Source: a virus. Taken from it: a stretch of 64,000 bases of DNA. Position numbers and translations under genes: made by a program. Shown here piece by piece: positions 3,677-45,923 of this stretch. A model generated the notes under the pieces. The model ran no database searches. It was not told the DNA's origin and saw only the letters and a program-made list of their open reading frames with translations. Position 1 is the first letter of the stretch; each line of letters opens with the position of its first letter. The stretch lies in the IMG/VR virus record IMGVR_UViG_3300045988_131126; one strand, 5' to 3'.

Positions 3677-3806
3677 TTTTATACATCCTTTCTTAATAAC
3701 GTTATTAATTATTTAATTGTTTGGGCTAGGCAAAATTTAAAAATAAAATACACTATACATATAAGTAATTGAGGACGTTTAAGTCTATTAATTTATTTCC
3801 TTTTTT

Positions 3807-3878
3807 GGACATTTAGCTAAGGGGTACAGCATTCGGCTCATAACCGAAAGATCCGGGGTTCGAATCCCTGAATGTCCA
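3807..3878 (+). tRNA. tRNA with anticodon CAT (Met, or Ile if lysidine-modified)
   Basis: Hand-folded cloverleaf. Acceptor GGACATT/AATGTCC; D arm GCT-AAGGGGTAC-AGC; anticodon arm TTCGG-CTCATAA-CCGAA; T arm CGGGG-TTCGAAT-CCCTG; discriminator A. It lacks the three G-C pairs of an initiator anticodon stem. Confidence 0.85.
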
Positions 3879-3942
3879 TTTAAATAATAGCATAGCTTTT
3901 TAAAGCTATGCTATATCTTTTTTGGAAAGGAAATGAAAAATT

Positions 3943-4446
3943 ATGAAAAGAGTAATTGCAGAGTGCCCCTATAATGATTATTATCTATATGTGGTCTTCC
4001 ATAAAAATGAAGGAAGACGATACGCTAATTTGATACCTATAGATGGATCTTCAGGGCTAAAAAGAAAAACAATAAGTTATGCAAGATATTTAATGTCTGT
4101 GAAAGAAGGGCGTATTCTTAACGAAAATGAACATGTTGATCATAAAGACAATAATAAAATTCACGATGATATAAGCAATCTTCAGATATTATCTCCGAGG
4201 GAAAATAAAATTAAAGAAGCAAAACGAAGAGGTACAAAAATGGTCGTTTTAAAATGTCCATACTGCGGTGTTATATTTGAAAAACCTAGAGGAAAAACAT
4301 TTTTAGTAAAAGGTGGTCGTTTTGCTGCATGTAGTAAAAGTTGTTCAGCCGGATTTGGTTCATTGCTACAATTTCATCCTAATGATCCAAAACTTTTACA
4401 AGCACTAAAAGAAAATGTTATAAATGAATACATAAAACATGAATAG
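3943..4446 (+). CDS. HNH homing endonuclease
   Basis: HNH core EHVDHKDNNKIHDDISNLQILSPRENKIKE plus a Cys-rich C-terminal segment (CPYCG...ACSKSC). It stands alone between a tRNA and a tRNA fragment, after the hairpin ATAGCATAGCTTTTTAAAGCTATGCTAT. Confidence 0.8.
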   Translation: MKRVIAECPYNDYYLYVVFHKNEGRRYANLIPIDGSSGLKRKTISYARYLMSVKEGRILNENEHVDHKDNNKIHDDISNLQILSPRENKIKEAKRRGTKMVVLKCPYCGVIFEKPRGKTFLVKGGRFAACSKSCSAGFGSLLQFHPNDPKLLQALKENVINEYIKHE

Positions 4447-7203: not shown

Positions 7204-8022
7204 TTAATAAGCCTCCTTAATAATTTCTTTAAGTAAATTTGCTGGATATGATGAAATCTTTGCACATGTTGATGCATCTACACTGTTTCTATCACGAATT
7301 AATTCTGCTGTATCGTCTTTGAATTTTAATAAGATAGATTCGATAGCTTTTAATGTCTCACTCTTATTCATTTTATTCATCATAACGTGCTTCACGTATG
7401 TTGTTACTACTGAAAGATTTCTGCCTCCGTCTATTGACCATACAGCAATATTTTTTAACTGTTTACAAATTTCAGAATATTTTTCTTTTGAAAAATCTTC
7501 TCTGTCTTTATCTATTCTTCTTAATATTTCTTTTACTGCATCGTAAGATACAGATTTTTTATCTATAGAAACTCTATTTATATATCGTTTTATTCTTATT
7601 CCTTCATCTACTGCAATATTTATAGCAATTATATTAAAATGCTCTACAAGTAATTTATTATTATCAAATTGCAATAAACCGTCTAATGTAGTGATTCCGA
7701 TATATGTATTTTCACAACGTTTTTCTACACCTAATAACTCTGGCGGTACAAGGTTAGTATAGAATACTGTTGTTAATTCTCCTTTATTATTATACATTTC
7801 ATAGGATCTCGGATCTATTTTTTCATATGACGGTATAGCACTATACTGATCAAATGTATTAAAGACAATATCAGGATCCCCGGTTTCATCTTCTCTAGAC
7901 TCTCTGGTTGTGCATAATCGAAGTTTCTTAATTGATGGGATCGAGTGTACAATTTGGTTTAAAATACTGTCCTTCCCTGAACAGGAAGGACCGATTAATA
8001 ATATTAATGTGTTCTTTTGCAT
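7204..8022 (-). CDS. P-loop kinase, guanylate-kinase/dNMP-kinase-like
   Basis: N-terminal Walker A LLIGPSCSGKDSILNQI, typical of the guanylate kinase fold. The substrate is not inferable. Confidence 0.55.
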   Translation of the reverse strand: MQKNTLILLIGPSCSGKDSILNQIVHSIPSIKKLRLCTTRESREDETGDPDIVFNTFDQYSAIPSYEKIDPRSYEMYNNKGELTTVFYTNLVPPELLGVEKRCENTYIGITTLDGLLQFDNNKLLVEHFNIIAINIAVDEGIRIKRYINRVSIDKKSVSYDAVKEILRRIDKDREDFSKEKYSEICKQLKNIAVWSIDGGRNLSVVTTYVKHVMMNKMNKSETLKAIESILLKFKDDTAELIRDRNSVDASTCAKISSYPANLLKEIIKEAY

Positions 8023-8122
8023 ATTAATTTCCTCCTTATTTTTCTATTAATGTAAAGTTTTGACAATTATAAAAATAAAACAAAGACACCCATGTATGTC
8101 AGGATCATACATGGGTAAAAAA

Positions 8123-8389
8123 TCATCTATTGGAATTGGTTAAACCTAAAGGACCAGATTGAAACGGTGTTCTTATATTAACTACAGGATCTGTTCCGTC
8201 TATACGTACAGATAAATTATTATTTTCGTCTATTTCCATAATAAGAAGATATACCTCCCCTGTACATTGATCTTTAAATTTTTTCTTATTTTCTCCGGGC
8301 CACAATTTATAAGCTATCCCTAATTCACAAGCCTCTCTTATACTATACCATGTGTTTTTATCAAATTCTTTGTGAAATACATTTTCCAT
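8123..8389 (-). CDS. hypothetical protein
   Basis: Track ORF downstream of the RT, followed by the hairpin ACCCATGTATG/CATACATGGGT (8088-8116) and a T-run on the minus strand. Confidence 0.5.
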   Translation of the reverse strand: MENVFHKEFDKNTWYSIREACELGIAYKLWPGENKKKFKDQCTGEVYLLIMEIDENNNLSVRIDGTDPVVNIRTPFQSGPLGLTNSNR

Positions 8390-8431
8390 ATTATTTTCTC
8401 CTTTTATCTATAATATTTTTAATATAAGGTT

Positions 8432-9646
8432 TTAGGGCAAATAAAAACATATACTGTGTGGGGACAGTATATGTGTGAAATTATAGTATGGTGTGTTAGT
8501 GTTATAATAATCATATCCATTTATAAATGGATCAATAAATAATTCGTTAAATAGTTTATCAAGGCTCATAATAGAAGTATAACACATACCTCTACGCTTT
8601 ATAGAACCTTTCCAAGACTTATATGCATTTAGAATTTGATCGAAAGTCATTTTACCAATATCCATTAAATGTCTAAACTTTTTAAGTCTTCTTCTTTCTC
8701 TTGTAATAGTTTTATTCACAACCCTTTTAACAACTTTACCAGTTTCGGTAAGTCTAAATCGAGTTTTTAAGAATGTAAATTGTTTAGATATTTTCTGTAA
8801 TCTACATTTCTTTTCACTGAAAGATAATCCAAGTTTAGTGGCAATTTGTTTTACACCTTGTATTACTTTCATTAAGTATTTCTTAGAATGATGTATAATA
8901 ATACCATCATCCATATATCTATCATATCCATGCACTCTCATTTGATCTTTTACATAATGATCTATTGGATTTGGATAATATACAGCGCTTATTTGTGATA
9001 TTTCACTTCCTAATCCTAAACCAATTTTACCAAATGCATAAATAAAAGTTTCTACATACTTCATTACATGATCAAATATAAGCTTACTCCTTTCAGCTTC
9101 TACTAGAGCATGTAATGGAATACTTCCAAAATAATCATGAAAATCAAACGTATAAATCCATCCTTTAAGACCATATTTCTTATAATGATCTTGTAAATGC
9201 TTAACTACACGTTTAATTTGATGATGCGGACCTCTACCTTTTAAAGTAGCTCCATTATCATAAATTAAGTAAGGTCTCAATACAGGAGTGATGCAATTTT
9301 TCACAAAAGATTTTTGCACTACACGTTCTTCTATAGTAATACTCTTTATATGTCTTAATTTACCTCTCTCCTTAATATCAAAACAATGGAATCCTCTTGG
9401 AGTAAATGATCCAGTATAACATTCTACGATTAAGTCTGGAAGATTAGTCGAAATAAATATACCGTAGCGTTGTACTATGGCTTTCCAATCAGTTCCTGCT
9501 TTACAAAATTTATACGATTCATATAATGCAGATTCAGAGAATACATCATTAAGATTGGAATGCTTTCTAGCAAGTTCCATTCTCTTTGCCAATCTCTTAG
9601 CTTTTCTTCTCTGATATCTAGCTTCGTGTCTTTCTTTGCTATTCAT
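8432..9646 (-). CDS. DGR reverse transcriptase
   Basis: RT motifs: catalytic YMDDGIIIH and the DGR-typical IGLGLGSEISQISAVYY (I/LGxxxSQ). A TR lies immediately upstream. Confidence 0.9.
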   Translation of the reverse strand: MNSKERHEARYQRRKAKRLAKRMELARKHSNLNDVFSESALYESYKFCKAGTDWKAIVQRYGIFISTNLPDLIVECYTGSFTPRGFHCFDIKERGKLRHIKSITIEERVVQKSFVKNCITPVLRPYLIYDNGATLKGRGPHHQIKRVVKHLQDHYKKYGLKGWIYTFDFHDYFGSIPLHALVEAERSKLIFDHVMKYVETFIYAFGKIGLGLGSEISQISAVYYPNPIDHYVKDQMRVHGYDRYMDDGIIIHHSKKYLMKVIQGVKQIATKLGLSFSEKKCRLQKISKQFTFLKTRFRLTETGKVVKRVVNKTITRERRRLKKFRHLMDIGKMTFDQILNAYKSWKGSIKRRGMCYTSIMSLDKLFNELFIDPFINGYDYYNTNTPYYNFTHILSPHSICFYLP

Positions 9647-9911
9647 AATTTATTTTTAACTAGAAAATTTAGGTGCTGTGAACAGAGAGATCTACCATGA
9701 AATACATAAAGTACCATGCAAGAAGCGTCCGGTAGCTCCCATCAGCTAATTTAGAAGTTCTAGTTATATTGACCTCCTAAACACATCTATTTATTTAATA
9801 CTCTAAACGAATATTAAAATGGGTAAATAATCTCCTTCTGCAAGGAAATTTTGTTAATCTAAAGATTTCGCACTATAGATAGTGTTACTGTGTCGCTCAT
9901 AACAACTCTTA

Positions 9912-10019
9912 CAGAATCAGAAGCACACGCCATTGCTGTTGCTGGCATTGTTGTTGTTGTTGCTACCGTCCGAGTTGACATTACAGAAGTTGTTGGTGTT
10001 GTTGTAATTAGGCGAACGA
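9912..10019 (-). repeat. DGR template repeat (TR)
   Basis: The coding-strand reading is CGT TCG CCT AAT TAC AAC AAC ACC AAC AAC TTC TGT AAT GTC AAC TCG GAC GGT AGC AAC AAC AAC AAC AAT GCC AGC AAC AGC AAT GGC GTG TGC TTC TGA TTC TG. It is AAC/AAT-rich and has a 108-bp colinear match to 10705-10812. Confidence 0.85.
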
Positions 10020-10061
10020 AAAAGGTTTACAGATTATTCCCCTTGTAAAACATAATATTTA

Positions 10062-10562
10062 TTAAGCTACAAATTTAACGATTTTACTATTTTGAACTTG
10101 TGTTTGTGTATTACAAATAGCTCGAGTATCTTTAAATCTCTTTTCATCACTACGAATAATCTTTTCTAAAGTATTAATTTCTTTATTTAACAAACTTAAC
10201 CATGTGTTTAAATCGGAATCTCTGACAGAAACTAATGGTGAATTTTCACCATTATCAACTTCATGCTTTATATAAAGCAATGCTGATATATCTGCAGAGA
10301 TTGAACAAGCTACTCCTTTAGCTTGTAAAAGGAATTGTCTCCTCATTGCAAAATCTTCTTTATATTTAATAGGAAATATAGAATTTCCCTGTATACATAA
10401 ATTATTTAAACATCTAGCTTTCTCCAATAATGGATGAGCTATCATGTAAGTATATCTTTTAGGCATTGATAGACATATACGAAGCGCCAACTTATACAGT
10501 TTAAAAGCATCGTATACGAATTGTGCACTAGATAGGTTTCTTTCACCTGCTGGCACACTCAT
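10062..10562 (-). CDS. avd: DGR accessory variability determinant (Avd-like four-helix-bundle protein)
   Basis: It sits between VR and TR. The LSMPKRYTYMIAHPLLEKARCLNNLCIQGNS pattern matches the four-helix-bundle (Avd / 23S rRNA-IVS protein) motif P-K-x-x-x-Y-x-hydrophobic...N-I-x-E-G. Confidence 0.7.
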   Translation of the reverse strand: MSVPAGERNLSSAQFVYDAFKLYKLALRICLSMPKRYTYMIAHPLLEKARCLNNLCIQGNSIFPIKYKEDFAMRRQFLLQAKGVACSISADISALLYIKHEVDNGENSPLVSVRDSDLNTWLSLLNKEINTLEKIIRSDEKRFKDTRAICNTQTQVQNSKIVKFVA

Positions 10563-10637
10563 ATCAAATCTCTCCTTTCTTTTGTATACTTTAATAAAAA
10601 GTTAGGGTTATCAAACCTTACAAGAAAAAATAAAAGG

Positions 10638-10665
10638 GTTGGTGGATCTGTACAGATCCACCAAC
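10638..10665 (-). terminator. GC-rich perfect hairpin 33 nt downstream of the VR-bearing gene
   Basis: GTTGGTGGATCTG ta CAGATCCACCAAC, followed on the minus strand by CCTTTTATTTTTTC. Besides terminating, a stem-loop just 3' of the VR is a known DGR accessory feature. Confidence 0.65.
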
Positions 10666-10697
10666 GATGGATTTGCTCGACAAGCTCGCAAATCTGA

Positions 10698-11771
10698 TTA
10701 TACGCAGAAGCAGAAGCACACGCCACCGCTGAAGCTGGCATAGTTGTAGTTGTATCTACCGTCCGAGTAGACACTACAGAAGTCGTAGGTGCTGCCGTAA
10801 TAAGGCGAACGAGTCCACCACCAATAAGCATCTCCACTACCATTATTCAGTTTCTTTATTCTAGAATTATTATCTGTAAATATAGGAAACTTTTTCTGAT
10901 TAGACTCAGTATTAGACTGGTATGTAAAACCAACTTCTGTACAACCAGGCAAAAATACTTTATCTTTAGAAGGTCTACCAGCGTTGGACGATGAAGTACC
11001 ACCACCTAAATTGGCATATGTGTTTACTTCTTTAATATAAGACTGTAAATTGGAAGGCATACTTTTGAAAATATTCTGCATAACAGTTTTCTTCATATCT
11101 GTATCATTCCAACCGCCAGAGTTAGTATCAGAACTATTCATTTGTCGAGTATTCTTCATTAAATGCTTCATTCCAAATACTATACCAGCTTTACCAGATC
11201 CATCAGATTTATCAAAGTGTTTGAAATCCCAAATCTGTAAAGTAACAGTCTCATTAAAAGTTCCTGATAAGGTGATATTAATTTCATCTCCAACTTTCCA
11301 TGTGGATGGAATAGCATCACCTTCACTAGCAGCTTTTATTTGTTCCCATGTGTTATCTTTCAATGTGGGGGCAAAGGACAATGGTATGGCAGCAAAAATC
11401 AAGTTGCTAGAATCGTTGTATACTTTGGCAGTATTATATGGGAAGAATCTATAATAATACTTATGGTTATTCGTTAAGCCCGAATCTGTATACCAAGTAT
11501 TCTTATATTTATCCCTTGTAGTGTTGTCTAGTACTACATCGCCATCCTTAATAGATTCAGGATAGTGATCAGCATTACGTATTAATAAAGTTCCTTTCCA
11601 AGCAGATATAGTAGTCCCGTCAACTACTGTATCTTTTGGATCGGACCATTTGATTAATACTCTACCGTTATTTACGGTTGATGAGATAGAGGTTACATCG
11701 CCCGGGGGAAATCCCTTGGAAGAAGATCCAGAGATCGTGGCAGATGCTCCACCTCTTACAATAACACTCAC
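10698..11771 (-). CDS. DGR target (variable) protein: FN3-like N-domain, conserved central domain, C-terminal VR
   Basis: Track ORF. The C-terminus WWWTRSPYYGSTYDFCSVYSDGRYNYNYASFSGGVCFCFCV is encoded by the VR. The variable residues sit exactly where the TR has AAC/AAT codons. Confidence 0.85.
   Translation of the reverse strand: MSVIVRGGASATISGSSSKGFPPGDVTSISSTVNNGRVLIKWSDPKDTVVDGTTISAWKGTLLIRNADHYPESIKDGDVVLDNTTRDKYKNTWYTDSGLTNNHKYYYRFFPYNTAKVYNDSSNLIFAAIPLSFAPTLKDNTWEQIKAASEGDAIPSTWKVGDEINITLSGTFNETVTLQIWDFKHFDKSDGSGKAGIVFGMKHLMKNTRQMNSSDTNSGGWNDTDMKKTVMQNIFKSMPSNLQSYIKEVNTYANLGGGTSSSNAGRPSKDKVFLPGCTEVGFTYQSNTESNQKKFPIFTDNNSRIKKLNNGSGDAYWWWTRSPYYGSTYDFCSVYSDGRYNYNYASFSGGVCFCFCV
10705..10812 (-). 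repeat. DGR variable repeat (VR) at the 3' end of the target gene
   Basis: 108 bp colinear with the TR. I count 17 differences. Sixteen fall at TR adenines (for example AAC to TAC, GGC, AGC, GAC, TTC; AAT to TAT, AGT, GGT). One is not at an adenine (AGC to AGA). Confidence 0.85.
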
Positions 11772-12072
11772 TATATAAAACCTCCTTTATTTTTATTAAT
11801 TACATATCTCAAACCTATTTACCAAAATTTTCCAATTAATTACCAAATATTTTTCCAAAAAAATGGAAAAATTTACTAATTAATTAAAATATTTATTTAC
11901 ATAAAGATAAAGGGGCTGAAGAACTATGTAATTTATTACATAGTTCTTCAGGTAATTTTATAAAAAATAAAAAAGATTTTTTAAAATTTTATATAGAAGA
12001 AGATGGATATACCATATGGTATATCCATCTTTATTTTTATATAGTTTACAATGAATACTTATGATATCTATA

Positions 12073-12594
12073 TTATTCTCGCTTATCTTCTATGGACATT
12101 GCTTTTACTTTCTTATCTATATCTTCATATGTCATACCTGTTAATTCTGAATACTTATCTTTTAATTTATTATAGTTATTCATATATTCATCTGCTTTTT
12201 CGGAATGATATTTGCTTGATTCATAAGCATTTACTATACCTTTGAATAAACATAATTCTTTATTATATAAGTATTTTGATGGAATATAAGCAAATGTCAT
12301 AAGTGTTGGAGATTCAATCTGTACATCTTTTCCTTCTATGAATATTTCTTCTCTGGGAATACCAGCTATATTAGATTGGTTATATGGAACTTTGGTATAT
12401 AAATTTAAAGAGAATAAAGGAACAAAATCTTTTTCTGTCTCTTCGTTATATTCCAATGTAATTAGACTTTCTGTACTCTGCATTAAATTGTCTGTAATAA
12501 GTTTAAAGTTCCATTTACAATTATTAATTATTGGTTTTCCATTAAAACAAATAGGTTCGTGTTTAAATATCATTCTATCTTTGTAATTATACAT
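12073..12594 (-). CDS. hypothetical protein
   Basis: Track ORF, followed by the hairpin AGATGGATATACCATATGGTATATCCATCT (12001-12030). Confidence 0.55.
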   Translation of the reverse strand: MYNYKDRMIFKHEPICFNGKPIINNCKWNFKLITDNLMQSTESLITLEYNEETEKDFVPLFSLNLYTKVPYNQSNIAGIPREEIFIEGKDVQIESPTLMTFAYIPSKYLYNKELCLFKGIVNAYESSKYHSEKADEYMNNYNKLKDKYSELTGMTYEDIDKKVKAMSIEDKRE

Positions 12595-12624
12595 TATATT
12601 ATTTCTCCTTATCTTTTTAGTATA

Positions 12625-12954
12625 TCAATTTTCAGAAAAGCCAAGTAAATCATATCCTAACTGACAGAAATAATTCTTTCCTATAACTGAAACAAATTCT
12701 TCTAAAGATGTAATATATGCAGTTGGTTCAGAATACTCTACTGGTACATAAAATCTTTTGGCACACTTCGCATTATCCCATAATATATCATCAATATATG
12801 AAACAGATAACTTTTTGGCTTTGTCTATAATTTTACATGATAATGTATTCATTCTGGTTAAAGATAACTTCTTATCATTTTTCGAAATGATTATATTCTC
12901 TCCGTAGTCTCTATCAGTTATGATAATAAAGTCGTCAGGTATACTATAATGCAT
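12625..12954 (-). CDS. hypothetical protein, DYG-motif family member 1
   Basis: Shares DFIIITDRDYGENIIIS with the next two ORFs. Confidence 0.55.
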   Translation of the reverse strand: MHYSIPDDFIIITDRDYGENIIISKNDKKLSLTRMNTLSCKIIDKAKKLSVSYIDDILWDNAKCAKRFYVPVEYSEPTAYITSLEEFVSVIGKNYFCQLGYDLLGFSEN

Positions 12955-12988
12955 TTGTACTTTGACTAATGGCTCCTTATGAGCTAAT

Positions 12989-13453
12989 TTACTTACTAAT
13001 TGTAAAATTTGATGGTTTTATCATTATCGTTATCGTGCTTACATTACAAGAACTTTCGGTCAATTTTATTGTTCCAAAGTCTAAGTAAGTTAAATTATCA
13101 TCTCCGATAGCGTCGGATAATGCAAGTGTATCTACTACGTAAACTGCGGCTTTTGAAAAATAAGTCGTATCGTCTTTAATATGAAATAATATTGTAATTT
13201 CATTACAAATGCTTGATGTAAGAGTATCACACGATATAGTCACTTGTCTCATATTATTTAAAATGATATTGGATTTTATATCAATTTTAGATAGTATAAC
13301 ATCAGATTTTTCGCCATGAATTTTTATTTTATCTCCATAATCTTTATCTATTATTACAAGTACGTATTCTCCCACAAGTTTAACAAATGATTTCGTTGGT
13401 AAGGTTTCTCTTTCTGTCAGATTGGCTGGTTTAAATAATTTGAAAGTTGTCAT
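12989..13453 (-). CDS. hypothetical protein, DYG-motif family member 2
   Basis: YVLVIIDKDYGDKIKIHG ... NIILNNMRQVTIS, parallel to member 3. Confidence 0.55.
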   Translation of the reverse strand: MTTFKLFKPANLTERETLPTKSFVKLVGEYVLVIIDKDYGDKIKIHGEKSDVILSKIDIKSNIILNNMRQVTISCDTLTSSICNEITILFHIKDDTTYFSKAAVYVVDTLALSDAIGDDNLTYLDFGTIKLTESSCNVSTITIMIKPSNFTISK

Positions 13454-14196
13454 GATTTATTTTCCTCCTCTTCATCTGAAGTTGACATAAGTTTTATATT
13501 AAATTTATTTAATAAATCAATAAACAGTGGAATGTGGTTGTGCCTAAAAGCTCTTAATAAGATACAGATATCTGCATTGCTTTCTGGTAACTCTTCTCCA
13601 ATGATGTATTTATTCATTAATCTACCTAAGAATACTCTTGCATCTTCAGTATTATCAAAAGTTAAAGCATTCTTTATTTGCTCTTTTTCTAATGGTAACT
13701 TTGCAAATGAGATTCCTGGTAATTTGCTAGGATCTTTATAGTTCTCATCAACTAAAATTACATATCTATCATTATCAAAAGTTATACAGTACTTTTGATC
13801 GTTATCTATAACCAAGTAATAGAATCCATTTATGAAAAACATACTATCATCAGCAGTAAGAATTTCGAATATATTCGATATTGAAGTACAATATACTGTA
13901 GCGTTTTTATATTCTTCTTTTGGAGTACAAATAATATCAAGTTCTCTTGGCGGATTCACATCAAGTGGTTTAAATTTAATATGTCTTTTATTATTTAAAA
14001 TAAAATTGTCGGCATCGTTTACTCTGCGAAAATCTACAGATGTCATATAACCTATCATTTTTAATGATATAGTATCGCCGTAATCATGATTTAATATTAA
14101 GAAGATATAATTTCCTTCATAGAAAAACCGTGATTTAATAATATCTTCCTTTTTGTAACCTAATTTGGATCTAACTGCGCTAAATTGAATTTTCAT
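13450..14196 (-). CDS. hypothetical protein, DYG-motif family member 3
   Basis: YIFLILNHDYGDTISLK ... NFILNNKRHIKF. A 4-nt overlap with member 2 suggests translational coupling. Confidence 0.55.
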   Translation of the reverse strand: MKIQFSAVRSKLGYKKEDIIKSRFFYEGNYIFLILNHDYGDTISLKMIGYMTSVDFRRVNDADNFILNNKRHIKFKPLDVNPPRELDIICTPKEEYKNATVYCTSISNIFEILTADDSMFFINGFYYLVIDNDQKYCITFDNDRYVILVDENYKDPSKLPGISFAKLPLEKEQIKNALTFDNTEDARVFLGRLMNKYIIGEELPESNADICILLRAFRHNHIPLFIDLLNKFNIKLMSTSDEEEENKS

Positions 14197-14307: not shown

Positions 14308-15369
14308 TTATACATTGAAACAAAAGCACACACCATAGCCATAGCCGGCGCCGGTGTAATCGTGGGTACCGTATATAGTGACATCACAGAAACAGTCGGG
14401 GTTGTTTCCGCAAATAGGCGAACGAAGCCACCATTGATAAGCATCTCCACTACCATTATTCATTTTCTTTATTCTAGAATTATCATTTGTGAATATAGGA
14501 AATTTTTTCTGGTTTTTCTCAGTTTCAGATTGATCTGGTTTATAATTTTTACCAAACATTTCTGTCATACCAGGTAAAAATACTTTATCTTTAGATAATA
14601 ACCCTGTACTAGAAGATGAACTGCCCAAACCTTGATTGGCATATGTGTTTACTTCTTTAATATAAGACTGTAAATCAGAAGGTATACTATTATAAATATT
14701 AACCATAACAGTTTTCTTCATAGCTGTATTATTCCAACCTCCAGAGTTAGTATGAGAACTATTCATGTATTGTCCATCTTTCATTAAATTTTTCATTCCA
14801 AATACTATACCTGCTTTACCACCACCATCGGATTTATCAAAATGATTAAAATCCCATATTTGTAATGTAATAGTTTCATTAAAAGTACCACTAAGCGTTA
14901 AATCTATTTCATCTCCAACTTTCCATATAGAAGAAGCTATACCAGCTTCAGAAGCAGTATTTATTTGTTCCCATGTATTATTCTTTAATATAGAGTCTAT
15001 GCCATAAAATGTATTTTCAACAATCATATTTATATTATTATTACATAATTTATTAGTATCGTATGCAAAAAATCTATAATAATATTTTTTGTTTTTAATT
15101 ACATCACTATCTGAGCATGTGGTTCCATTTCCACTATATATAGTATTCCCATCTTTAATACTCGTCGGATAACGGCTTTCATTTCTTACTATTATTACAT
15201 GATCAAATGTAGATAGCGTAGTTCCGTCTATAACTACATTAGATGGATTAGTCCATGATAATATAATAGAAGAAGCATTTTGAGAAGCTTTTATATTAGT
15301 AACTTCTCCCGGCCCTATTCCTTTATTATTAGAAGAACTAATATTATTTCCTTTTAATATAATACTCAT
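14308..15369 (-). CDS. paralogue of the DGR target protein; C-terminal VR-like region does not match the local TR
   Basis: Shares the FN3-like N-domain, TLQIWDFNHFDKSDGGGKAGIVFGMKNLM, FPIFT.D.NSRIKK and the ...GVCFCFNV end. The VR-like segment keeps the CGTTCGCCT and GTGTGCTT flanks, but has one extra codon and many non-adenine differences relative to the TR. Confidence 0.8.
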   Translation of the reverse strand: MSIILKGNNISSSNNKGIGPGEVTNIKASQNASSIILSWTNPSNVVIDGTTLSTFDHVIIVRNESRYPTSIKDGNTIYSGNGTTCSDSDVIKNKKYYYRFFAYDTNKLCNNNINMIVENTFYGIDSILKNNTWEQINTASEAGIASSIWKVGDEIDLTLSGTFNETITLQIWDFNHFDKSDGGGKAGIVFGMKNLMKDGQYMNSSHTNSGGWNNTAMKKTVMVNIYNSIPSDLQSYIKEVNTYANQGLGSSSSSTGLLSKDKVFLPGMTEMFGKNYKPDQSETEKNQKKFPIFTNDNSRIKKMNNGSGDAYQWWLRSPICGNNPDCFCDVTIYGTHDYTGAGYGYGVCFCFNV

Positions 15370-15417
15370 AATATATCCTCCTTTGTGTGAGGACTATAAA
15401 AGATATATTATGAGAAA

Positions 15418-16497
15418 TTATACATTAAAACAAAAACATACACCACCAGAAACGTCTGCATTATAACCATGCACATACCCTGCGCCATTATAAAACATAT
15501 TTCCATCATAGTCTACAAATATAACTATATTTGTCTCGTTTTCTTCCGTAGATCTTAAAAACCAATCGTTATTGACACCAGATCGTTTTTTTATTCTAGA
15601 ATTTTTATCTGTGAATATAGGAAATTGGGTCTGTCCAGCTTCTGTGTTATATTGTTCAGAAGACCATTTTCCGAATACTTCTATAGATCCTGGTATAAAT
15701 ACTTTATCTTTTGATAAAGTTCCTTTTTCAACTTTACCTACATAGGTATAATTTTCATTAGCATATGTATTGACTTTTTTTAATACATTTTGCAAATCTA
15801 TAGGCATACTGGAGATTATTTTAGGTATATAAGTTGTTCTCATCGTACACGAACTCCAATAAGGATATTCTAAGCAATTCTCTTCTTTCATTAAGTTCTT
15901 CATACCAAATACTATACCTGCTTTTCCACTACCATCAGATTTATCAAAATGATTAAAATCCCATATCTGTAAAGTAATAGTTTCATTATATGTACCAGAT
16001 AAAGTAATATCTATTTCATCCCCTATATTCCATATAGAAGAAGCTATACCTGACTCACTAGCAGCTGCTATTTGTTCCCATGTATTATTCTTTAATATAG
16101 GATCAAATTCTACTACAGCAGCGCTATATATCATACCACTATCATTATTATATATTTTATCAGTATTACAAACAAAAAATCTATAATAATAAGTATCTAT
16201 CTCTAAATTATTATCAGTATATTCAGTATTTTTATATTTATTTTTCTCTGTAGTTTCTAATACTATATCTCCATCTTTAATACTTGTAGGAATTGATCCT
16301 TTTTTACGTACTAATGTAGTAGATTGCCATGTAGATAATGTTTTATCTCCAATTACTACATCATCAGGATCTGTCCATTTAATGGTTACTTTTTTATTTC
16401 CGCCTTTGATAGTTACATTAGTTACATTTCCCGGAGGATATCCTTTGGATGATCCTCCTCCACTTGAACTATCTATTCTTTTTATTAAAACGCTCAT
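15418..16497 (-). CDS. paralogue of the DGR target protein (more diverged C-terminus)
   Basis: Same domain order. Ends ...YNADVSGGVCFCFNV. Confidence 0.8.
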   Translation of the reverse strand: MSVLIKRIDSSSGGGSSKGYPPGNVTNVTIKGGNKKVTIKWTDPDDVVIGDKTLSTWQSTTLVRKKGSIPTSIKDGDIVLETTEKNKYKNTEYTDNNLEIDTYYYRFFVCNTDKIYNNDSGMIYSAAVVEFDPILKNNTWEQIAAASESGIASSIWNIGDEIDITLSGTYNETITLQIWDFNHFDKSDGSGKAGIVFGMKNLMKEENCLEYPYWSSCTMRTTYIPKIISSMPIDLQNVLKKVNTYANENYTYVGKVEKGTLSKDKVFIPGSIEVFGKWSSEQYNTEAGQTQFPIFTDKNSRIKKRSGVNNDWFLRSTEENETNIVIFVDYDGNMFYNGAGYVHGYNADVSGGVCFCFNV

Positions 16498-16662
16498 AGA
16501 GTAATTTACTTCCTTTCCAATGTGGGGAGCACAAACAAAATCAGTAATTACCCTCTATATAACAAGTTTATTTATAAACTTGTTATATAGAGGTCTTTTT
16601 AACGTATATGAACGTATTACTATAAAATTATATAACTTTTGTCCCCGGAACAGGAGTATATA

Positions 16663-17757
16663 ATGAGTATTTTAATAAAAGGAATAAGCAACTCAAGTGG
16701 ATCATCTAAAGGGTTTCCTGTAGGAAATGTAACCAATGTATCTATATATTATTTAAATAGTAAAGTATATATTAAGTTTTCTGATCCGAATAATACCGTA
16801 GAAAATAATATTACTTTATCCACTTGGTATAGTACTATTATAGTAAGAAAAGAAAATAGTATTCCTACTAATATTAAAGATGGAGATATAATATTAGAAA
16901 ATATTATTAAAGATAAATACAAAGAAACTGATTTTATCGATACAAATATAGAGATCAATCGTACTTATTATTATAGATTTTTTGTTTGCAATACTGATAA
17001 AATATATAATAATAGTAGCGATATGATATATAAAGTAGAAACAAAAAATATAGATAGTAATATAAAAAACAATACATGGGATCAGATAAGCAAAGTTTCA
17101 GAATTAGGCTTAGCTTCTTCTATATGGAAAGTTGGGGATGAAATTAATATTAAATTATCTGGTACATATAATGAAACTATTACTTTACAAATATGGGATT
17201 TTAATCATTTTGATAAAAGTGACGGTAGCGGTAAAGCAGGTATAGTATTCGGAATGAAAAACTTAATGAAAAATACAGATTATATGTCTAAAACTGCAGG
17301 ATATGGAAATGAGGACGGATGGGGAAGCTCATATATGAGAAAAACTGTAATGAATAAAATATATCAATCTATGCCAGATGAAATAAAACCCAAAATTAAA
17401 CAAGTCCATATAGAATCAACAAGAGGCGGCAGTACAGGGGAAGGCGCAGGTATTGGTGTACCTACAGATGACTATATATTTTTACCGGGAAAATGTGAAG
17501 CTTGCTATAGTAAGTCTGAATCGCAGTCAAATTTCCAAAAACGATTCCCTATATTTACAGATGATAGTTCTAGAATAAAGAAATTATCCAATGGTAGCAA
17601 AGCCGTTGAAAGCTGGTGGGTGAGGGATGCTGATGATAGTTATTACACGGCCTATAATTGCATAACAACTGCGGGAAGTACGTCTACAATGTATGGAAAT
17701 CCAAATGGATCTTTTACTGCGTATAAAGCAGGTGTTTGTTTTTGCTTTAATATATAA
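16663..17757 (+). CDS. paralogue of the DGR target protein, on the opposite strand
   Basis: Start moved to MSILIKG (ATG at 16663 after GGAACAGGAGTATATA). Same family motifs. Ends ...AYKAGVCFCFNI. Confidence 0.8.
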   Translation: MSILIKGISNSSGSSKGFPVGNVTNVSIYYLNSKVYIKFSDPNNTVENNITLSTWYSTIIVRKENSIPTNIKDGDIILENIIKDKYKETDFIDTNIEINRTYYYRFFVCNTDKIYNNSSDMIYKVETKNIDSNIKNNTWDQISKVSELGLASSIWKVGDEINIKLSGTYNETITLQIWDFNHFDKSDGSGKAGIVFGMKNLMKNTDYMSKTAGYGNEDGWGSSYMRKTVMNKIYQSMPDEIKPKIKQVHIESTRGGSTGEGAGIGVPTDDYIFLPGKCEACYSKSESQSNFQKRFPIFTDDSSRIKKLSNGSKAVESWWVRDADDSYYTAYNCITTAGSTSTMYGNPNGSFTAYKAGVCFCFNI

Positions 17758-20251: not shown

Positions 20252-21187
20252 TTATAGCGGCTTCCATGAATCATTTACTTTTGTATAAGCAGAAGTGATT
20301 TGTTTCCATGAACCATTTACTTTTATATACATAGCTGAAGCAGTTTTAATAGATCCACCAACTTTTATCTTTAGGTTTGGACACACTTGGCAATCTATAA
20401 CTGTTATACGGCAATATCCATTCCCAGCATGACCTGTTTCCGAGCTTCCTGTAGGGCTTGTAAATGAAGTCCCTCCATTTTTCATAGATGCACTAGCTAA
20501 ATAATCATCTGCTGTTAAAAGACATCCAGAAGGATAATTTCCTTTGGTACTACTTGTGTAGATATATCCAGAACCACCAGCTCCACCTTTATCATCGTCA
20601 CCTGAACCGTCTGGATATGATCCACCACCGCCATACCATCCGCCACCTCCGGCTCCAGCGTAACCAGAAGCGTAATAAGTTCCTTTACCACCAGCTCCAA
20701 ATGATCCTGGATTTCCAGAACCACCTGAGCCACCAGCCTTTTGTGTACCTCCGCCTCCGGCAGTACCATATCCATTACTTGGTGATTGTCCAGTGTCACC
20801 ACCGCCATATCCACCTTGGCTAGATGATGCTCCATCGGATCCACCACCACCAGCTACAATTACTCTTGCATATAACGAATCTTTTCTTAAGCGGATATCG
20901 GATCCACCACCTCCACCATTATATGTCTCTCTAGATCCACCACCATTGAATCCACCACTGGTTTTACCAGTATTACCTGCGCCACCAGCGTATACATATA
21001 CAGTAGTTTTAGATTTTAAAGTTAGAGTACCAACAGAATATCCACCCATTCCACCATATGATGATGAAGATCTATATCCACCTTGAGCACCCCATACTTC
21101 TAATTTATAAGTACCCTTCGGCAAAGTTACTGTTTGAACTTTACCTGTATATGCAAAATTTAGTTTATCGCCTTTTTTAATAGCCAT
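20252..21187 (-). CDS. glycine-rich domain protein (Gly_rich family-like), probable fibre or tail accessory protein
   Basis: TVTLPKGTYKLEVWGAQGG ... GGYSVGTLTL ... VYVYAGGAGN ... GGGGSDIRL ... VIVAGGGGSDG, the pattern of the glycine-rich beta-sandwich family common in phage tail loci. Confidence 0.65.
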   Translation of the reverse strand: MAIKKGDKLNFAYTGKVQTVTLPKGTYKLEVWGAQGGYRSSSSYGGMGGYSVGTLTLKSKTTVYVYAGGAGNTGKTSGGFNGGGSRETYNGGGGGSDIRLRKDSLYARVIVAGGGGSDGASSSQGGYGGGDTGQSPSNGYGTAGGGGTQKAGGSGGSGNPGSFGAGGKGTYYASGYAGAGGGGWYGGGGSYPDGSGDDDKGGAGGSGYIYTSSTKGNYPSGCLLTADDYLASASMKNGGTSFTSPTGSSETGHAGNGYCRITVIDCQVCPNLKIKVGGSIKTASAMYIKVNGSWKQITSAYTKVNDSWKPL

Positions 21188-41176: not shown

Positions 41177-42349
41177 TTATTTATTTGCTAAACTTATTGT
41201 CAATGCATAATATTTTAATATAGATTTAAAATAAGATATCTTAGTAGCTAATCTAGATTTTCTCTTTCTATAATTTGGAGAATTTTCATCTAGCCATTTC
41301 TCTATAATCTCTTTCTCTCTAATAATATTTGGGTTCTTAGTATTAGGCTTAGGAGTTATAGATTTGGCTATAAACTCAAGCCCAGTTACAGATTTATTCT
41401 CTGAATTAGCCATATACTCAGAAACCATAATTCTTAACAATTCTTTCACTTCCATTAAGTTCTGAGGATCATCTTGTATTCCTTCTATTATACTCTTTAT
41501 TTCATCTGTCTTTACATTAGCATCTTTGCATTTCTTACAAATGGACAAGTCTACTCCATGAGTAGTAATCTTATTCATAGCATTTTCTACATATCCTTCA
41601 GCCTTAATAGAATCATTCTCTGCTAATCTAAAATTATCCTGTTCGTAAGAATCACTATCATAAGATAAATAAGCATCACTATTCTGATATACATCTTTAA
41701 ATACTGCTACTATATTACCTAAGAATGATTTAATTCTTCCATGTAACTGCTGTACAATATCCGCTATATCTTCATCATCAGCGCCATCATTGCATAATTT
41801 CTTTTCATATGTATCTAACCATGTTCTACATATACTTTTTATAGCTCCGAATACAGTACCTTCTCTTTTTAAATCAAATTTTTGAGATAATACATTATTT
41901 ACTACATATTCAAGTATATGTCTTTTTGGCGGATAAATAAATTTTTGCGAATGAATAGACGGATAAAAGTTACCACTAAATGCTAAATATATAGAAGATA
42001 TTTCAGCACGTTTTCTATCGTTATGTTTTAAAAAATGTCTTATTACCATCATCTGTGTTGGTACTAATGGTACTTTCATACATCTTGGATTAAAGTTCAT
42101 ATCCCAATAATAAGTTTTACTTAATATACTTTCTACATCTTTAGGATTTATATTTAAAGTCAAAAAATAATTATTGGTGTCTTCTGCAGTAAATAATATC
42201 CTTGCTTGAGGAATTGTATCGTAAATATCTGCAGATCTTGTTTGAAAGAATTTAGACAAAAAATTAATATATTTGGTTTGATTTTTTGAAATAGCACTAG
42301 ATACTATTGGATATAGTTCTGGTACTATAATTGACGTAATTTTGGACAT
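41177..42349 (-). CDS. hypothetical protein (390 aa) immediately downstream of the repeat array
   Basis: Track ORF. SD AAAGGTGGT lies 10 nt upstream. Confidence 0.65.
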   Translation of the reverse strand: MSKITSIIVPELYPIVSSAISKNQTKYINFLSKFFQTRSADIYDTIPQARILFTAEDTNNYFLTLNINPKDVESILSKTYYWDMNFNPRCMKVPLVPTQMMVIRHFLKHNDRKRAEISSIYLAFSGNFYPSIHSQKFIYPPKRHILEYVVNNVLSQKFDLKREGTVFGAIKSICRTWLDTYEKKLCNDGADDEDIADIVQQLHGRIKSFLGNIVAVFKDVYQNSDAYLSYDSDSYEQDNFRLAENDSIKAEGYVENAMNKITTHGVDLSICKKCKDANVKTDEIKSIIEGIQDDPQNLMEVKELLRIMVSEYMANSENKSVTGLEFIAKSITPKPNTKNPNIIREKEIIEKWLDENSPNYRKRKSRLATKISYFKSILKYYALTISLANK

Positions 42350-42354
42350 AATGT

Positions 42355-42404
42355 CTCTACCACCTTTAATGAAGTTTATTACTCCATTGTTTTCGGTGGT
42401 AGAG
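42355..42404 (-). promoter_or_regulatory. 10-bp stem that would sequester the SD of 41177..42349
   Basis: On the minus-strand RNA: CTCTACCACC (42404-42395), a 30-nt loop, then GGTGGTAGAG (42364-42355), then ACATT and the ATG. The 3' arm contains the SD. Confidence 0.4.
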
Positions 42405-44150
42405 AATTTTTATTTTGAAATTATGATATTTTTATATTCTCGATTTTATTTAAACCTTGTGATATTTTTATAATTTCTGATTTTATTTTGCGACTATGAT
42501 ATTTAAATCAAAATGATTTTATTTAATTTTCCTGATGTTTTGCCCTTTTTAATTTTATTTAATCTTTATGATATATTTCCAAAAATAATTTTATTTAACT
42601 GCTACGATATTTTATAATTTCTGATTTTTATTTCTGCTTATTGATCTTTTACCAACTGTGAATCACTTAGCATATTATGATATTTATGTGTTTCTGGTTT
42701 ATTTAACTTGTTTGATGTTTTCAGTTGTCTGATTTTACTTTGATAATATGATATTTAATCTCTCTCGGTTTATTTTTAAACTATGATGTTTTTATCTATG
42801 TGATTTTATTTGAATAATATGATATATTTCGGAGATTAATTTATTCACGAAGCATGATATTTATATTAATTTGATTTATTGTTTCTACTTGATACTTTTG
42901 AGCCTTCGATTTATTCTTGTTTTATGATATTTTCAATATGATGATTTTACTTTCATCAAATGATATTTAAGTGTAATTGGTTTATTTGTATTACATGATA
43001 TTTTCGCTCAAATGAATTATTCTTTTGGAAATGATATTTTTCCGACTGTGAATCACTTTGTAAGTATGATATTTATGTGTTTCTGGTTTATTATTAAAGA
43101 ATGATGTTTATACTTTTTTAATTTTACTTCAGTAATATGATATATATACTTTGATGGTTTATTTGTATCATACGATATTTTCACCTATTTGATTTTATTT
43201 AAATCCTATGATATATTTTATTTGTTAATTTATTTTGTCGGTATGATATTTCGAGATTTCTAATTTTTTCACTATAATTGATGATTTTATAATTTATGAA
43301 TTGCTTACATTCTCTGATATTTTTATCAATATGGGTTACTCCATAAATATGATATTTAGGAATATATGGTTTATTATTGAATCGTGATGTTTAAGCTTTT
43401 TTGATTTTACTCTAACAATGTGATATTTATACGCTTTGGGTTTAATTATGTCCACTTGATATTTTGAGGTATTTAATTTGCTTAAGGACAATGATACTTT
43501 TTCGTTTTCGGCTTATTATTACCCTACGATATATCTATTTCAATAATTTATTAGCGTTAGATGATATATTAGATACGCTAATTTATTGGTGTTATATGAT
43601 ACTTTTTTAAGCATAATTTTACTTTTACGATTTGATATTTAAAATCACTTGGTTTATTAAATTCTTTTGATATTTTTGTCGAAATAATTTACTCACTCTT
43701 TTAGATATTTATTAATATTTGGTTTATTATTATATATTGATATTTTCACAGCGATAATTTTACTTTCTTGATATGATATTTAAAATTTTATGGTTTATTT
43801 ATCCTATATGATATTTTTTACATATTAATTTATTAGCGTTAGATGATATATTAGATACATTAATTTATTAGTGGAAAGTGATCCCTTTTTAAGCATAATT
43901 TTACTTTTTCGTTCTGATATTAAAAATTTCTTGGTTTTATTAAAACTATATAATATTTTATTGTAAATAATTTATTTGGTTTCATTGATAGCTTTATTTA
44001 TTTGATTTACTTACTCTTTTAGATATTTATTAATATTTGATTTATTATCATATTTTGATATTTTTAACATGAATAATTTTACTTTTTCATTCTGATATTT
44101 AATATCTTCTGGTTTATTTATATCATATGATATTTCTTCAAGTGTAATTT
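42404..44150 (+). repeat. array of about 49 head-to-tail units of 35-36 bp, each with two conserved cores and variable linkers; no ORF
   Basis: The TGATAT cores are at 42424, 42460, 42497, 42533, 42569, 42605, 42642, 42678, 42713, 42749, 42784, 42820, 42855, 42890, 42925, 42961, 42996, 43032, 43067, 43102, 43138 ... 44128. That is 48 intervals with a mean of 35.5 bp. Each unit is (a)TGATATTT, about 10 variable nt, (t)GATTTTAYTT or GGTTTATT, then about 8 variable nt. Confidence 0.9.
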
Positions 44151-44152
44151 AA

Positions 44153-44183
44153 ATCAGAGATAGGTAACTTACCTATCTCTGAT
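44153..44183. terminator. 14-bp perfect hairpin closing the array and following the stop of 44193..45923
   Basis: ATCAGAGATAGGTA act TACCTATCTCTGAT. The T-rich tract ATATTTTATTTAT follows on the plus strand, and GATTTAAATT follows on the minus strand. Confidence 0.65.
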
Positions 44184-44192
44184 ATATTTTAT

Positions 44193-45923
44193 TTATCCAT
44201 TATATTTTGGATATTCCGCTCTCTTATCTGGTTTAAATGTAAGTTCTGTTTCAAACGGTACTTCTGGTTTGATATAGTCTACATGACCGAGTCTAGAGAT
44301 TGGGAATACCATTGGCGGAAGTTCTCCATTTTCATAAATATACATTGCTTCAAATACATGCTCTACAAAAATCTTTACTGTCCATCTCTTCGCTCTTGCT
44401 GCAATCTGAGCCGGTGGAAGCATTCCTTTAATGTAGTAGCTATACGCAATGCTATTCTTGCTATAGTTTTTAGCTCTAAGAGCTTTTGCAGCCTGGTCTT
44501 TATATTCCAGGTTTTCGTTTTTACGTGTTTCATATTCCTTCCTTTCTTTATATAACTCTCCATACATAGAACCTCTATTAGATACTTTAACGAAAGACTC
44601 TCCAATCTTCCACATAAGAACTTTCAGTTTAATATTGTATGGAGGCTTAGATAAATAAGAAATTAAGGATTTCTTAGTAATAAATCCATCGTATTTATCT
44701 TCCTCTTTATTAATAGTAGCTGATTTAATCATATTATTGATCTTTCTTCTACCATTAAGTTTTGTGTACAGGTTGCTCATGATTACATGGGTGATAATAT
44801 TCTTATCGGATAAATTGATAATATAGTCAACAAAATGATCTATACTAAACGGTTCCTCCATATTAATTACACCGAGATATGTTTCGTATGTATCCATATG
44901 AAGAATTTCATCTTCAATAGATTCATATTCTACTTCTGTATCATCAATCTCTTCTCTCTGATTAAGCTGTTTATAGGAACGTAAATCTTCATCGACAATT
45001 TTTCTAGCTAATAATATAAGCTTAGATAATTCTTTATTAGGCATTTTACTGATTACATATTCCTTGATTGCATTTTCATTATATAATAGATTTTCTGCTA
45101 AAGATTTATCAATATCAATATCAAGTTCTTCGCAAGCTGCGGCGAATCCTTTGTTTCTAATATCTCTAATAGCCATTAAATCTTTAACAATATTGGTTGC
45201 TTTCTCTTTGCCTAACCATGGATTATTATTGTCATTTAATCCTGCATATGACCAGAAGTTACCTGCAGAATTAACTCCATCTACATTAAAATATGCATAT
45301 AAGCAAGAACTGATTACTGGCCCAATACCTTTGTTTCGTTTTAACCATCTAGTTACTGGATTAGTATCAGAATATGCTTCAAGCATAGCTTTGGTATTAT
45401 CTTCAATATTTCTAAGCTGTAATAAGTTCCATTTCATAATAGATACATTGTCAGGATTATCATTATTATCGTATCCCTGATTTAATGATCTTACCTGATT
45501 CTCTGTACCAATTCTGAAATCCTGAATCTGATAATAAAAATCTACTAATGATTTGACCTCGTTATAATTAAGTGTCACTACAGTTTTCTTAAGGTCTTTA
45601 GACATTTTTCCAAGACCTATAACATTCTGCTTAAGTACACCATCTTCCATTTCCGCATCAGGCTCAAACTCTTCGATATCTTCTTCTGTCGCTTTTTCAA
45701 ACTTTAACACTTTCTTTTCTTTCTTAGACTCTTCATTCTTTTCCTCTTTATCATTCTTTTTAGTAGTTCCGGAAGTCTTTGTATTCTTTTCGTTAATAAT
45801 TTCTTCAACAATTTTCAAAGATTCTAAATCTCCCATACCTATAAAATATGACCTAGCCTCCTCTAAAGTTTTCATTCTACTTCTTGTTGATAATTCTTTT
45901 CCTCTGAATAATAATTTTGTCAT
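44193..45923 (-). CDS. hypothetical protein with a helix-hairpin-helix segment resembling the IS110-family Transposase_20 domain
   Basis: NKGIGPVISSCLYAYFNVDGVNSAGNFWSYAGLND parallels the IS110 C-domain pattern GIGP...A..L.A.......F.s......yaGL. No DEDD/RuvC-like N-domain was recognised. The N-terminus is K/E-rich. Confidence 0.6.
   Translation of the reverse strand: MTKLLFRGKELSTRSRMKTLEEARSYFIGMGDLESLKIVEEIINEKNTKTSGTTKKNDKEEKNEESKKEKKVLKFEKATEEDIEEFEPDAEMEDGVLKQNVIGLGKMSKDLKKTVVTLNYNEVKSLVDFYYQIQDFRIGTENQVRSLNQGYDNNDNPDNVSIMKWNLLQLRNIEDNTKAMLEAYSDTNPVTRWLKRNKGIGPVISSCLYAYFNVDGVNSAGNFWSYAGLNDNNNPWLGKEKATNIVKDLMAIRDIRNKGFAAACEELDIDIDKSLAENLLYNENAIKEYVISKMPNKELSKLILLARKIVDEDLRSYKQLNQREEIDDTEVEYESIEDEILHMDTYETYLGVINMEEPFSIDHFVDYIINLSDKNIITHVIMSNLYTKLNGRRKINNMIKSATINKEEDKYDGFITKKSLISYLSKPPYNIKLKVLMWKIGESFVKVSNRGSMYGELYKERKEYETRKNENLEYKDQAAKALRAKNYSKNSIAYSYYIKGMLPPAQIAARAKRWTVKIFVEHVFEAMYIYENGELPPMVFPISRLGHVDYIKPEVPFETELTFKPDKRAEYPKYNG

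Follow-up and report, generated by a model that had tools for sequence, protein, structure and literature searches.

Positions 8432-11771 on the minus strand of the IMG/VR viral record IMGVR_UViG_3300045988_131126, analysed here as a 64,000-nt window to whose numbering all positions refer, carry a complete diversity-generating retroelement (DGR), and we consider it very probable that this is a functional element of a roughly 274-kb human-gut phage. The order of its parts, namely a target gene ending in a variable repeat (VR), an avd-like gene, a template repeat (TR), a structured spacer and a reverse transcriptase (RT) gene, is that seen in the element of Bordetella phage BPP-1. An initial annotation of this DNA had proposed as much, and the proposal was supported on all points that could be tested; its gene coordinates and its TR-to-RT spacer of exactly 265 nt all hold (Table 1).

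The computed alignment of TR with VR runs over 108 nt without gaps and contains 17 mismatches, 16 of which fall on TR adenines rather than being spread evenly over the four bases (P = 1.1e-8 for at least 16 of 17 on A, hypergeometric, 35 A in the 108-nt TR). The colinearity, the mismatch counts, the TR and VR translations and the figure of about 35 adenines, now exactly 35, thus agree with what had earlier been read from the letters. The same pair was returned as the top and longest direct repeat by an independent repeat search. One of the adenine differences is of another kind: TR position 103 (window 9917) is A in the TR and C in all VRs examined, and is therefore a fixed difference between the initiation of mutagenic homing (IMH) sequence of the VR and its TR counterpart IMH*, not a product of mutagenesis. 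With this position discounted, the window VR has 15 true adenine-mutagenesis differences, so that the earlier count of 16 is right as a count and one too many as a measure of mutagenesis. The proposed IMH/IMH* pair itself is borne out: the two repeats have a common invariant GGCGTGTGCTTCTG, followed by C in every VR and A in the TR, and diverge past TTCTG. A second current VR was sought by scanning the whole window; only the target paralogue at 14308 was matched, and it was rejected with agreement at 49 of 73 non-A positions.

Natural diversification of this VR is seen on comparison between samples. An identical RT protein is encoded on at least 21 public metagenome contigs, several of them about 274 kb long, and eight loci encoding the exact window RT were fetched from such contigs. 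In all eight, the TR is identical to that of the window at 108 of 108 positions. One locus (L002) equals the window across the whole 3.3 kb, and the other seven each have their own, different VR. The resulting eight distinct VRs depart from the TR at A positions 126 times, with G in 64 cases, T in 40 and C in 22, and at other bases twice. Differences from the TR occur at 33 of the 35 A positions, of which 32 vary among the VRs, the remaining one being position 103; the 32 variable adenines span TR positions 11 to 87 and all lie at codon positions 1 or 2. Outside the VR, by comparison, identity is at least 99.7% in the four loci that could be compared without gaps: over 3232 nt, or 2273 nt at L008, which is truncated, there are 1-10 differences, as against 16-20 within the 108-nt VR. 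Protein databases show the same picture, with 14 distinct VR peptides in the 15 members listed from the target's 51-member cluster at 90% identity and variation mainly at the same C-terminal positions among 24 target homologues at 80-95% identity. This is the pattern that an active DGR yields: the VR variation that the initial annotation had proposed to look for in population data is present in eight forms, and the combination of a constant TR and RT with different VRs in our reading rules out chance, a long-dead relic and gene conversion from paralogues.

Table 1. Features of the DGR and related genes, in window positions.
Feature	Position	Strand	Basis or description
Target gene	10698..11771	-	open reading frame (ORF), 357 aa, VR at its C-terminus
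VR	10705..10812	-	ungapped 108-nt match to TR
IMH-like 3' invariant part of VR	10705-10725	-	TGGCGTGTGCTTCTGCTTCTG
Mutagenised part of VR	about 10726-10802	-	variation across 8 distinct VRs
Candidate target-site hairpin/cruciform	10669..10693	-	GATTTGC-GA-G [CTTGT] C-GA-GCAAATC, begins 5 nt past stop codon
Intrinsic-terminator-like hairpin and T-run	10628..10665	-	promoter/terminator scan
Avd-like accessory gene	10062..10562	-	ORF, 166 aa
TR, non-coding	9912..10019	-	35 A, the majority in AAC/AAT codons when read in the VR frame
TR strand of proposed template:primer duplex	9908..9916	-	UUCUGUAAG, RNAduplex and covariation
Spacer strand of proposed duplex	9836..9844	-	CUUGCAGAA, RNAduplex and covariation
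Structured spacer RNA, Rfam RT-2 (RF03077)	9651..9902	-	cmscan and MAFFT; 5' limit near 9902 is an estimate
DGR reverse transcriptase	8432..9646	-	ORF, 404 aa, LGSEISQ at aa 212-218, YMDD at aa 244-247
FN3-DUF6273 paralogue of target	14308-15369	-	paralogues 47-58% identical to target
FN3-DUF6273 paralogue of target	15418-16497	-	
FN3-DUF6273 paralogue of target	16639-17757	+	

Sequence comparison places the RT in the DGR family. The protein matches Pfam RVT_1 (E 2.6e-14) and PHROG 1423 (E 1e-62) and contains both of the motifs noted initially, YMDD (as RYMDDG) and a DGR-type GxxxSQ (LGSEISQ), the latter aligned to IGSLTSQ of its best PDB match, the Bordetella RT bRT (8ub7, E 4e-11). Its nearest phage relatives by tblastn are DGR RTs, from Roseburia phage Shimadzu (45% identity), Faecalibacterium phages Pioen, Roos and Taranis, and nd4 and nd12. 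A group II intron or retron RT is correspondingly disfavoured: the NCBIfam models group_II_RT_mat and Retron St85 scored 70 and 24 bits, far below their respective cut-offs of 300 and 235, and no group II intron or retron RNA was found in an Rfam search of the window. Region 8000-12000 gave no megablast match among GenBank phages.

The accessory protein appears to be a remote relative of Avd, as supported by its fold, by transitive homology and by its position. Its AlphaFold2 (AF2) model is a four-helix bundle (predicted local distance difference test score, pLDDT, 91.4), for which the best Foldseek matches were 2gsc (TM-score 0.81-0.87); the Avd chains of the BPP-1 ribonucleoprotein (8ub7_B/E and 8ubb_D) followed at 0.77-0.80. 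In BPP-1, such bundles build a pentameric barrel. An exhaustive HMMER search collected 141 remote relatives of 130-170 aa, and among 88 of these that were aligned, eight match Pfam bAvd and six match 23S_rRNA_IVP. The annotated Avd of phage Shimadzu is 28% identical to the window protein over 87 aa (E 2e-8). Against PDB, the 88-sequence profile gave weak S15 noise only.

The spacer contains an RNA of the Rfam family RT-2 (RF03077), located by cmscan at 9651-9815 with 53.2 bits, the gathering score being 40. The first ~70 model positions were aligned with posterior probabilities of 2-5, and MAFFT alignments show both that the family's 5' elements GACACAGTAAC, GCGAAATC and GCAGAAGGAG come straight after the TR and that the RT-2 of the window's lineage carries an insertion. 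The cmscan placement of the 5' third is probably wrong, the true 5' part lying at about 9830-9902, and the Rfam coordinates would therefore understate the RNA. RT-2 is found in the same avd-RT gap of Shimadzu (144.9 bits) and of four other relatives; that of BPP-1 has RF03022 (Phage_DGR). More widely, 68 of 80 IMG/VR loci with related RTs carry the RT-2 core GGACGCTKCTTGCATGG upstream of the RT, and in about 55 of these 68 a clear TR/VR pair is present whose mismatches are A-specific. Among the RT motifs, Weinberg et al. 2017 (PMC5737381) connected RT-10 alone with a DGR, that of BPP-1, and offered speculation for the rest; the present data tie the orphan RT-2 motif to DGRs as well. A single-sequence minimum free energy fold of the 415-nt avd-RT gap was discarded as evidence, being no better than those of shuffled sequences (z -1.0).

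In BPP-1, the 3' end of the TR (117-129) pairs with spacer nucleotides 47-56, A56 priming cDNA synthesis and G117 serving as the first template base, a geometry that we verified (TR G117/U118 with spacer A56). For the window, RNAduplex predicts pairing of TR UUCUGUAAG (9916-9908) with spacer CUUGCAGAA (9844-9836), the latter lying just before an invariant GG. AAGG at 9834-9837 is invariant in 33 aligned spacers, and A9836 is followed by a conserved GGAG (9832-9835). Covariation was assessed in 24 distinct DGRs, with the register anchored in the TR on the TR-specific A (C in the VR) and in the spacer on the invariant AAGG. TR positions +1 to +6 pair in 24, 23, 24, 21, 20 and 22 of the 24, respectively, and positions 3-6 each show 3-5 types of pair; examples are UUCCAC:GUGGAA, UUCCGA:UCGGAA, UUUAAG:CUUAAA and UUAUUUA:UAAAUAA. 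Duplex energies for a DGR's own TR/spacer pair average -9.3 kcal/mol, compared to -6.1 kcal/mol for cross pairs, and the own-pair mean was reached in none of 5000 permutations. Covariation across related DGRs thus supports a template:primer duplex like that of BPP-1, in which priming would be from adenosine A9836 and A9917 would be copied first. A local 9-bp hairpin, AAUUUCCUU-GCAG-AAGGAGAUU (about 9829-9850), was entertained as an Avd-binding stem-loop and rejected; since Shimadzu does not conserve it and the covarying primer strand forms its 3' arm, the intermolecular-type TR:spacer pairing is favoured.

Two hairpins lie past the VR. The one at 10638-10665, described at the outset as a GC-rich perfect hairpin 33 nt beyond the VR, is indeed a perfect 14+14 palindrome, but its G+C content is only 50% and it lies 39 nt past the VR end as defined here and 32 nt past the stop codon. 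The palindrome is followed by CCTTTTATTTTTT, and the promoter/terminator scan reports it as a terminator with a 12-bp stem, a 4-nt loop and then CCTTTTATTT. It is the centroid structure of the folded region and is not conserved as a DGR feature among relatives; we conclude that it probably ends the target-gene transcript. The element that is conserved lies at 10669-10693, an imperfect hairpin with an AT-rich stem of 7 bp, a tandem G.A, a G-C pair and a CTTGT loop. Hairpins with this loop or a close variant, on unrelated stems, stand 18-50 nt past the VR at 21 of 52 distinct related DGR loci, where about 0.5 would be expected by chance. Both the CTTGT hairpin and the GC-rich IMH are missing from the three non-diversified paralogues in the window. 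Guo et al. 2011 (PMC3240598) described a 7-10 bp GC-rich stem with a GRNA tetraloop 4-34 bp downstream of the VR, and by analogy the hairpin at 10669-10693 is a candidate target-site hairpin or cruciform. The pentamer TAATC (stop codon plus TC; window 10698-10704) recurs right past the VR in many otherwise dissimilar DGRs of the clade and may be part of the target-site signal. An Rfam atoC match at 10632-10717 (22 bits against 50) was dismissed as the two hairpins matching by chance.

Residues 207-356 of the target protein match Pfam DUF6273 (PF19789) with E 4.8e-20 and 72.6 bits, the cut-off being 23.5. In its AF2 model (pLDDT 91.5), a disordered N-terminus precedes an FN3-like beta-sandwich at about aa 25-128, and the C-terminus forms an alpha/beta domain whose last strands are the VR. 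FN3 domains dominate the Foldseek matches in PDB, the only whole-domain match being the IgA peptidase of T. ramosa (9qa6), whose N-terminal domain is DUF6273; in BFVD, many phage DUF6273, tail-collar-fibre and receptor-binding proteins are matched. Neither the target nor its 72-sequence profile matched any PDB sequence. DUF6273 has already been published as a DGR target (PMC10743442, PMC11792537) and has been described as C-type-lectin-like (PMC10743442, PMC11792537, bioRxiv 10.64898/2026.05.08.723808); according to this literature, and specifically the assignment in PMC10743442, the VR-bearing C-terminal domain of the target is C-type-lectin-like.

A working model may be drawn from these elements. 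The RT and the Avd-like protein would bind an RNA that runs from the end of avd through the TR and the structured RT-2 spacer, in which the 3' tail of the TR (9908-9916) would pair with the spacer (9836-9844). Synthesis of cDNA would be primed in cis from spacer adenosine 9836 and begin opposite TR A9917, and copying of the TR would be faithful except opposite adenines. The cDNA would then replace VR positions about 10726-10802, homing being directed by the GC-rich IMH (GGCGTGTGC...) and probably also by the CTTGT-loop hairpin just past the stop codon. Recoding could thereby reach up to about 22 codons in the DUF6273 (lectin-like) domain at the C-terminus of a virion surface protein that contains FN3, and the recoded domain would alter what the phage binds. 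Of this model, the anatomy, the adenine specificity, the natural diversification, the family assignments of RT and spacer RNA and the duplex covariation come from the present data, whereas priming in cis at A9836, the parts played by Avd and by the hairpin, and ligand binding are carried over from BPP-1 by analogy.

Several points weigh against this model or its parts. The window VR has a single non-adenine mismatch, C to A at TR position 58 (AGC to AGA). The accessory protein, although avd-like in fold, transitive homology and position, gave nothing meaningful in direct sequence searches of Pfam, NCBIfam and PDB, and nothing in an hhalign comparison with the single BPP-1 Avd sequence. The priming site and the hairpin's part in homing are drawn by analogy, and in five related RT-2-type lineages (L049, L078, L079, L095 and L096) the spacer strand fits the VR (IMH) form of the sequence better than it fits the TR tail; at L049, for instance, spacer TACAGAA matches VR TTCTGTA as against TTCAGTA in the TR. 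When the whole target model was compared with PDB by Foldseek, no lectin fold was recovered for the C-terminal domain. Finally, the diversity is one seen between samples, and on a related 250-kb contig (L009; ENA ERZ28617396, 5115-6103) the RT was called as two ORFs of 96 and 215 aa. The TR of that contig has one change and its VR has three non-adenine mismatches; the locus is either a DGR in decay or an artefact of assembly. The paralogue upstream of it has a VR-like end matching the TR at 63 of 73 non-A positions, better than the paralogue in the window does.

These last observations, together with the non-adenine change in the window VR, are what could be said for an element that diversified its VR formerly and is now inactive, the differences between contigs being inherited lineage markers. 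We regard this as very unlikely. Loci with 1-10 differences per about 3200 flanking positions nevertheless differ at 16-20 of 108 VR positions, and 14 of the 15 cluster members have unique VRs; at least 21 contigs carry an intact and 100% conserved RT, with the TR unchanged in all loci compared; and an inactive element would gather non-A changes, of which there are none in six of the eight loci. Alternatively, the VR might vary without reverse transcription, through gene conversion by its three DUF6273 neighbours or recombination with them, as in antigenic variation of the cassette type; this might be suggested by the presence of four paralogous genes within 7 kb and by a database homologue (P0032) with a C-terminus like that of the 14308 paralogue. 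We find this explanation scarcely credible: the changes sit almost only at TR-adenine columns and run to G, T and C in the proportions given above, every non-A base agrees with the TR and not with the paralogues, the paralogues match at most 49 of 73 non-A positions and contain an indel, and the sequence of the neighbouring paralogue does not change between three samples with differing VRs.

On the virion, the target may belong to the tail or decorate the head. The initial annotation had put the gene next to the tail-fibre locus and taken its product for a probable receptor-binding protein, a view that is supported only in part. Fibre-like proteins are indeed encoded at 17.8-26 kb of the window, 6-15 kb from the target, but the immediate neighbours are four small unannotated ORFs (12073-14196), followed by the three target paralogues at 14308-17757. 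As to receptor binding, the BFVD neighbours include a protein named as such, whereas the target also matches PHROG 10993, 'Hoc-like head decoration' (E 2.9e-11). The same mechanism might then serve a Hoc-like or tentaclin-like adhesin that decorates the capsid or the fibres and attaches to mucus, host glycans or other surfaces rather than a receptor-binding protein of the tail, a possibility to which we would give appreciable weight though rather less than an even chance. Besides the PHROG match, it would suit the FN3 plus lectin-like build, which resembles Ig plus C-lec decoration proteins (PMC10743442, bioRxiv 10.64898/2026.05.08.723808), the failure to find a recognisable tail-fibre anchor domain in the target, and a protein 13 kb away with a weak head-fibre match. 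It sits less easily with the structural neighbours in BFVD, among them a 'tail-collar fiber protein' (E 1.5e-17), with the fibre-like genes at 6-15 kb, and with the fact that characterised phage DGRs usually target the tropism determinant.

Comparison with the prototype DGR, mtd-avd-TR-brt of BPP-1, shows agreement in the order of target/VR, avd, TR, structured spacer and RT, in a GC-rich IMH with a differing IMH*, in a hairpin past the VR, and in duplex geometry, with a U:A pair adjoining the first template base; the BPP-1 RT is also the best solved-structure match of the window RT. The two RTs are nonetheless distant, the window's accessory protein has no direct sequence match to Avd, and the spacer RNA is RT-2 rather than Phage_DGR. 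The proposed first template base is A instead of G, the hairpin loop is a CTTGT pentanucleotide instead of a GRNA tetraloop, the target is an FN3 plus DUF6273 protein instead of Mtd, and the host is a jumbo phage of ~274 kb instead of a 42-kb temperate podovirus. Shimadzu (LR596903), which has the closest characterised RT, and related gut-phage DGRs from IMG/VR are nearer: they have the same order of tail-fibre-type target, Avd, TR, RT-2 RNA and RT, and the same covarying TR:spacer duplex, and Shimadzu and many relatives also present TCTG-A-TTC in the TR against TCTG-C-TTC in the VR. Shimadzu differs in being a 45-kb phage, in the low identity of its Avd, and in an RT-2 that is compact (224 nt), whereas the window copy has an insertion of about 50-70 nt. 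DUF6273 DGR targets are known in Faecalibacterium phages Lelie, CP11, Roos and Pioen and in nd4/nd12 (tgt2); in contrast to these, DUF6273 in the window is preceded by FN3 and belongs to one of four tandem paralogues, and the Faecalibacterium phage and nd4/nd12 RTs are only 28-32% identical to the window RT. The Rfam RT-2 motif of Weinberg et al. 2017 is matched above its gathering threshold and, as in that description, directly before an RT gene.

The nearest paralogue differs from the TR at 19 of 35 A columns, compared to 14 of 73 others (P 3e-4). Given this bias and the constancy of its sequence in three samples with differing active VRs, it has the look of a fossil VR. Together, the four tandem FN3-DUF6273 genes might then form an archive built by a cycle of 'diversify, duplicate, freeze', with one copy rewritten by the DGR and former VRs kept as fixed paralogues; we offer this tentatively and think it doubtful. 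The rewritten copy could be the one that keeps the IMH and CTTGT hairpin, the paralogues having lost these marks. If the archive exists, a large, probably lytic AR9/PBS1-like phage would hold a set of standing binding specificities together with one evolving copy.

The phage background is indicated by replication genes of jumbo-phage type. The large topoisomerase II subunit (50799-53150, minus strand) shares about 30% identity with its counterparts in Bacillus phages AR9/PBS1 and Staphylococcus jumbo phages, PHROG topoisomerase II families are matched by the other subunit (46311-48713, minus strand), and Dda-like and DnaB-like helicases are also encoded. Related contigs are about 274 kb long with about 30% G+C, and Myoviridae sp. 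ctcyQ27 is the name given to a UniRef fragment of the target. Other features of the window may be recorded briefly. Upstream of the target gene, two long near-perfect palindromes with stems of 16 and 15 bp (11916-11951 and 11999-12032) separate divergent or convergent units, the first scored as terminator-like on the plus strand and the second on both strands. Amid the fibre-like genes, a 311-aa protein (20252-21187, minus strand) strongly matches the Pfam glycine-rich domain ALK_LTK_GRD (E 1e-45). Region 42000-44200 has 22% G+C, no ORFs of at least 120 aa and a strong negative AT skew, and is adjoined by a 576-aa ORF (44193-45923, minus strand) matching a PHROG transposase family (E 2e-34). 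A tRNA-Met (CAT) at 3806-3879 (plus strand) adjoins a small ORF at 3943-4446 (plus strand) that differs between strains: an ORF with a weak HNH_3 endonuclease match occupies the site in L001 (11156-11662), L003 and L005, and an unrelated 167-aa ORF in the window and L002. The site is a strain-variable islet.

DGRs are very common in gut phages, a TR-VR pair having been found in 85.7% of 25,620 RT-carrying high-quality gut phage genomes in the MGV survey (PMC8241571), and DUF6273 targets are published; the element described here is thus a clean textbook case and not a discovery. It does provide an unusually well-controlled natural experiment, with RT and TR constant and the VR different in each sample, and the nearest cultured relatives of its ~274-kb host by topoisomerase (~30% identity), AR9/PBS1-like and Staphylococcus jumbo phages, are not reported to carry DGRs; for the Staphylococcus phages, their absence has been reported. 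The link of RT-2 to DGRs, the priming duplex and the CTTGT hairpin are modest, testable additions. The covariation predicts a template:primer duplex and a priming adenosine for a large clade of gut-phage DGRs, and the clade-specific candidate hairpin with the CTTGT loop could aid both the annotation of DGRs and the retargeting of such elements.

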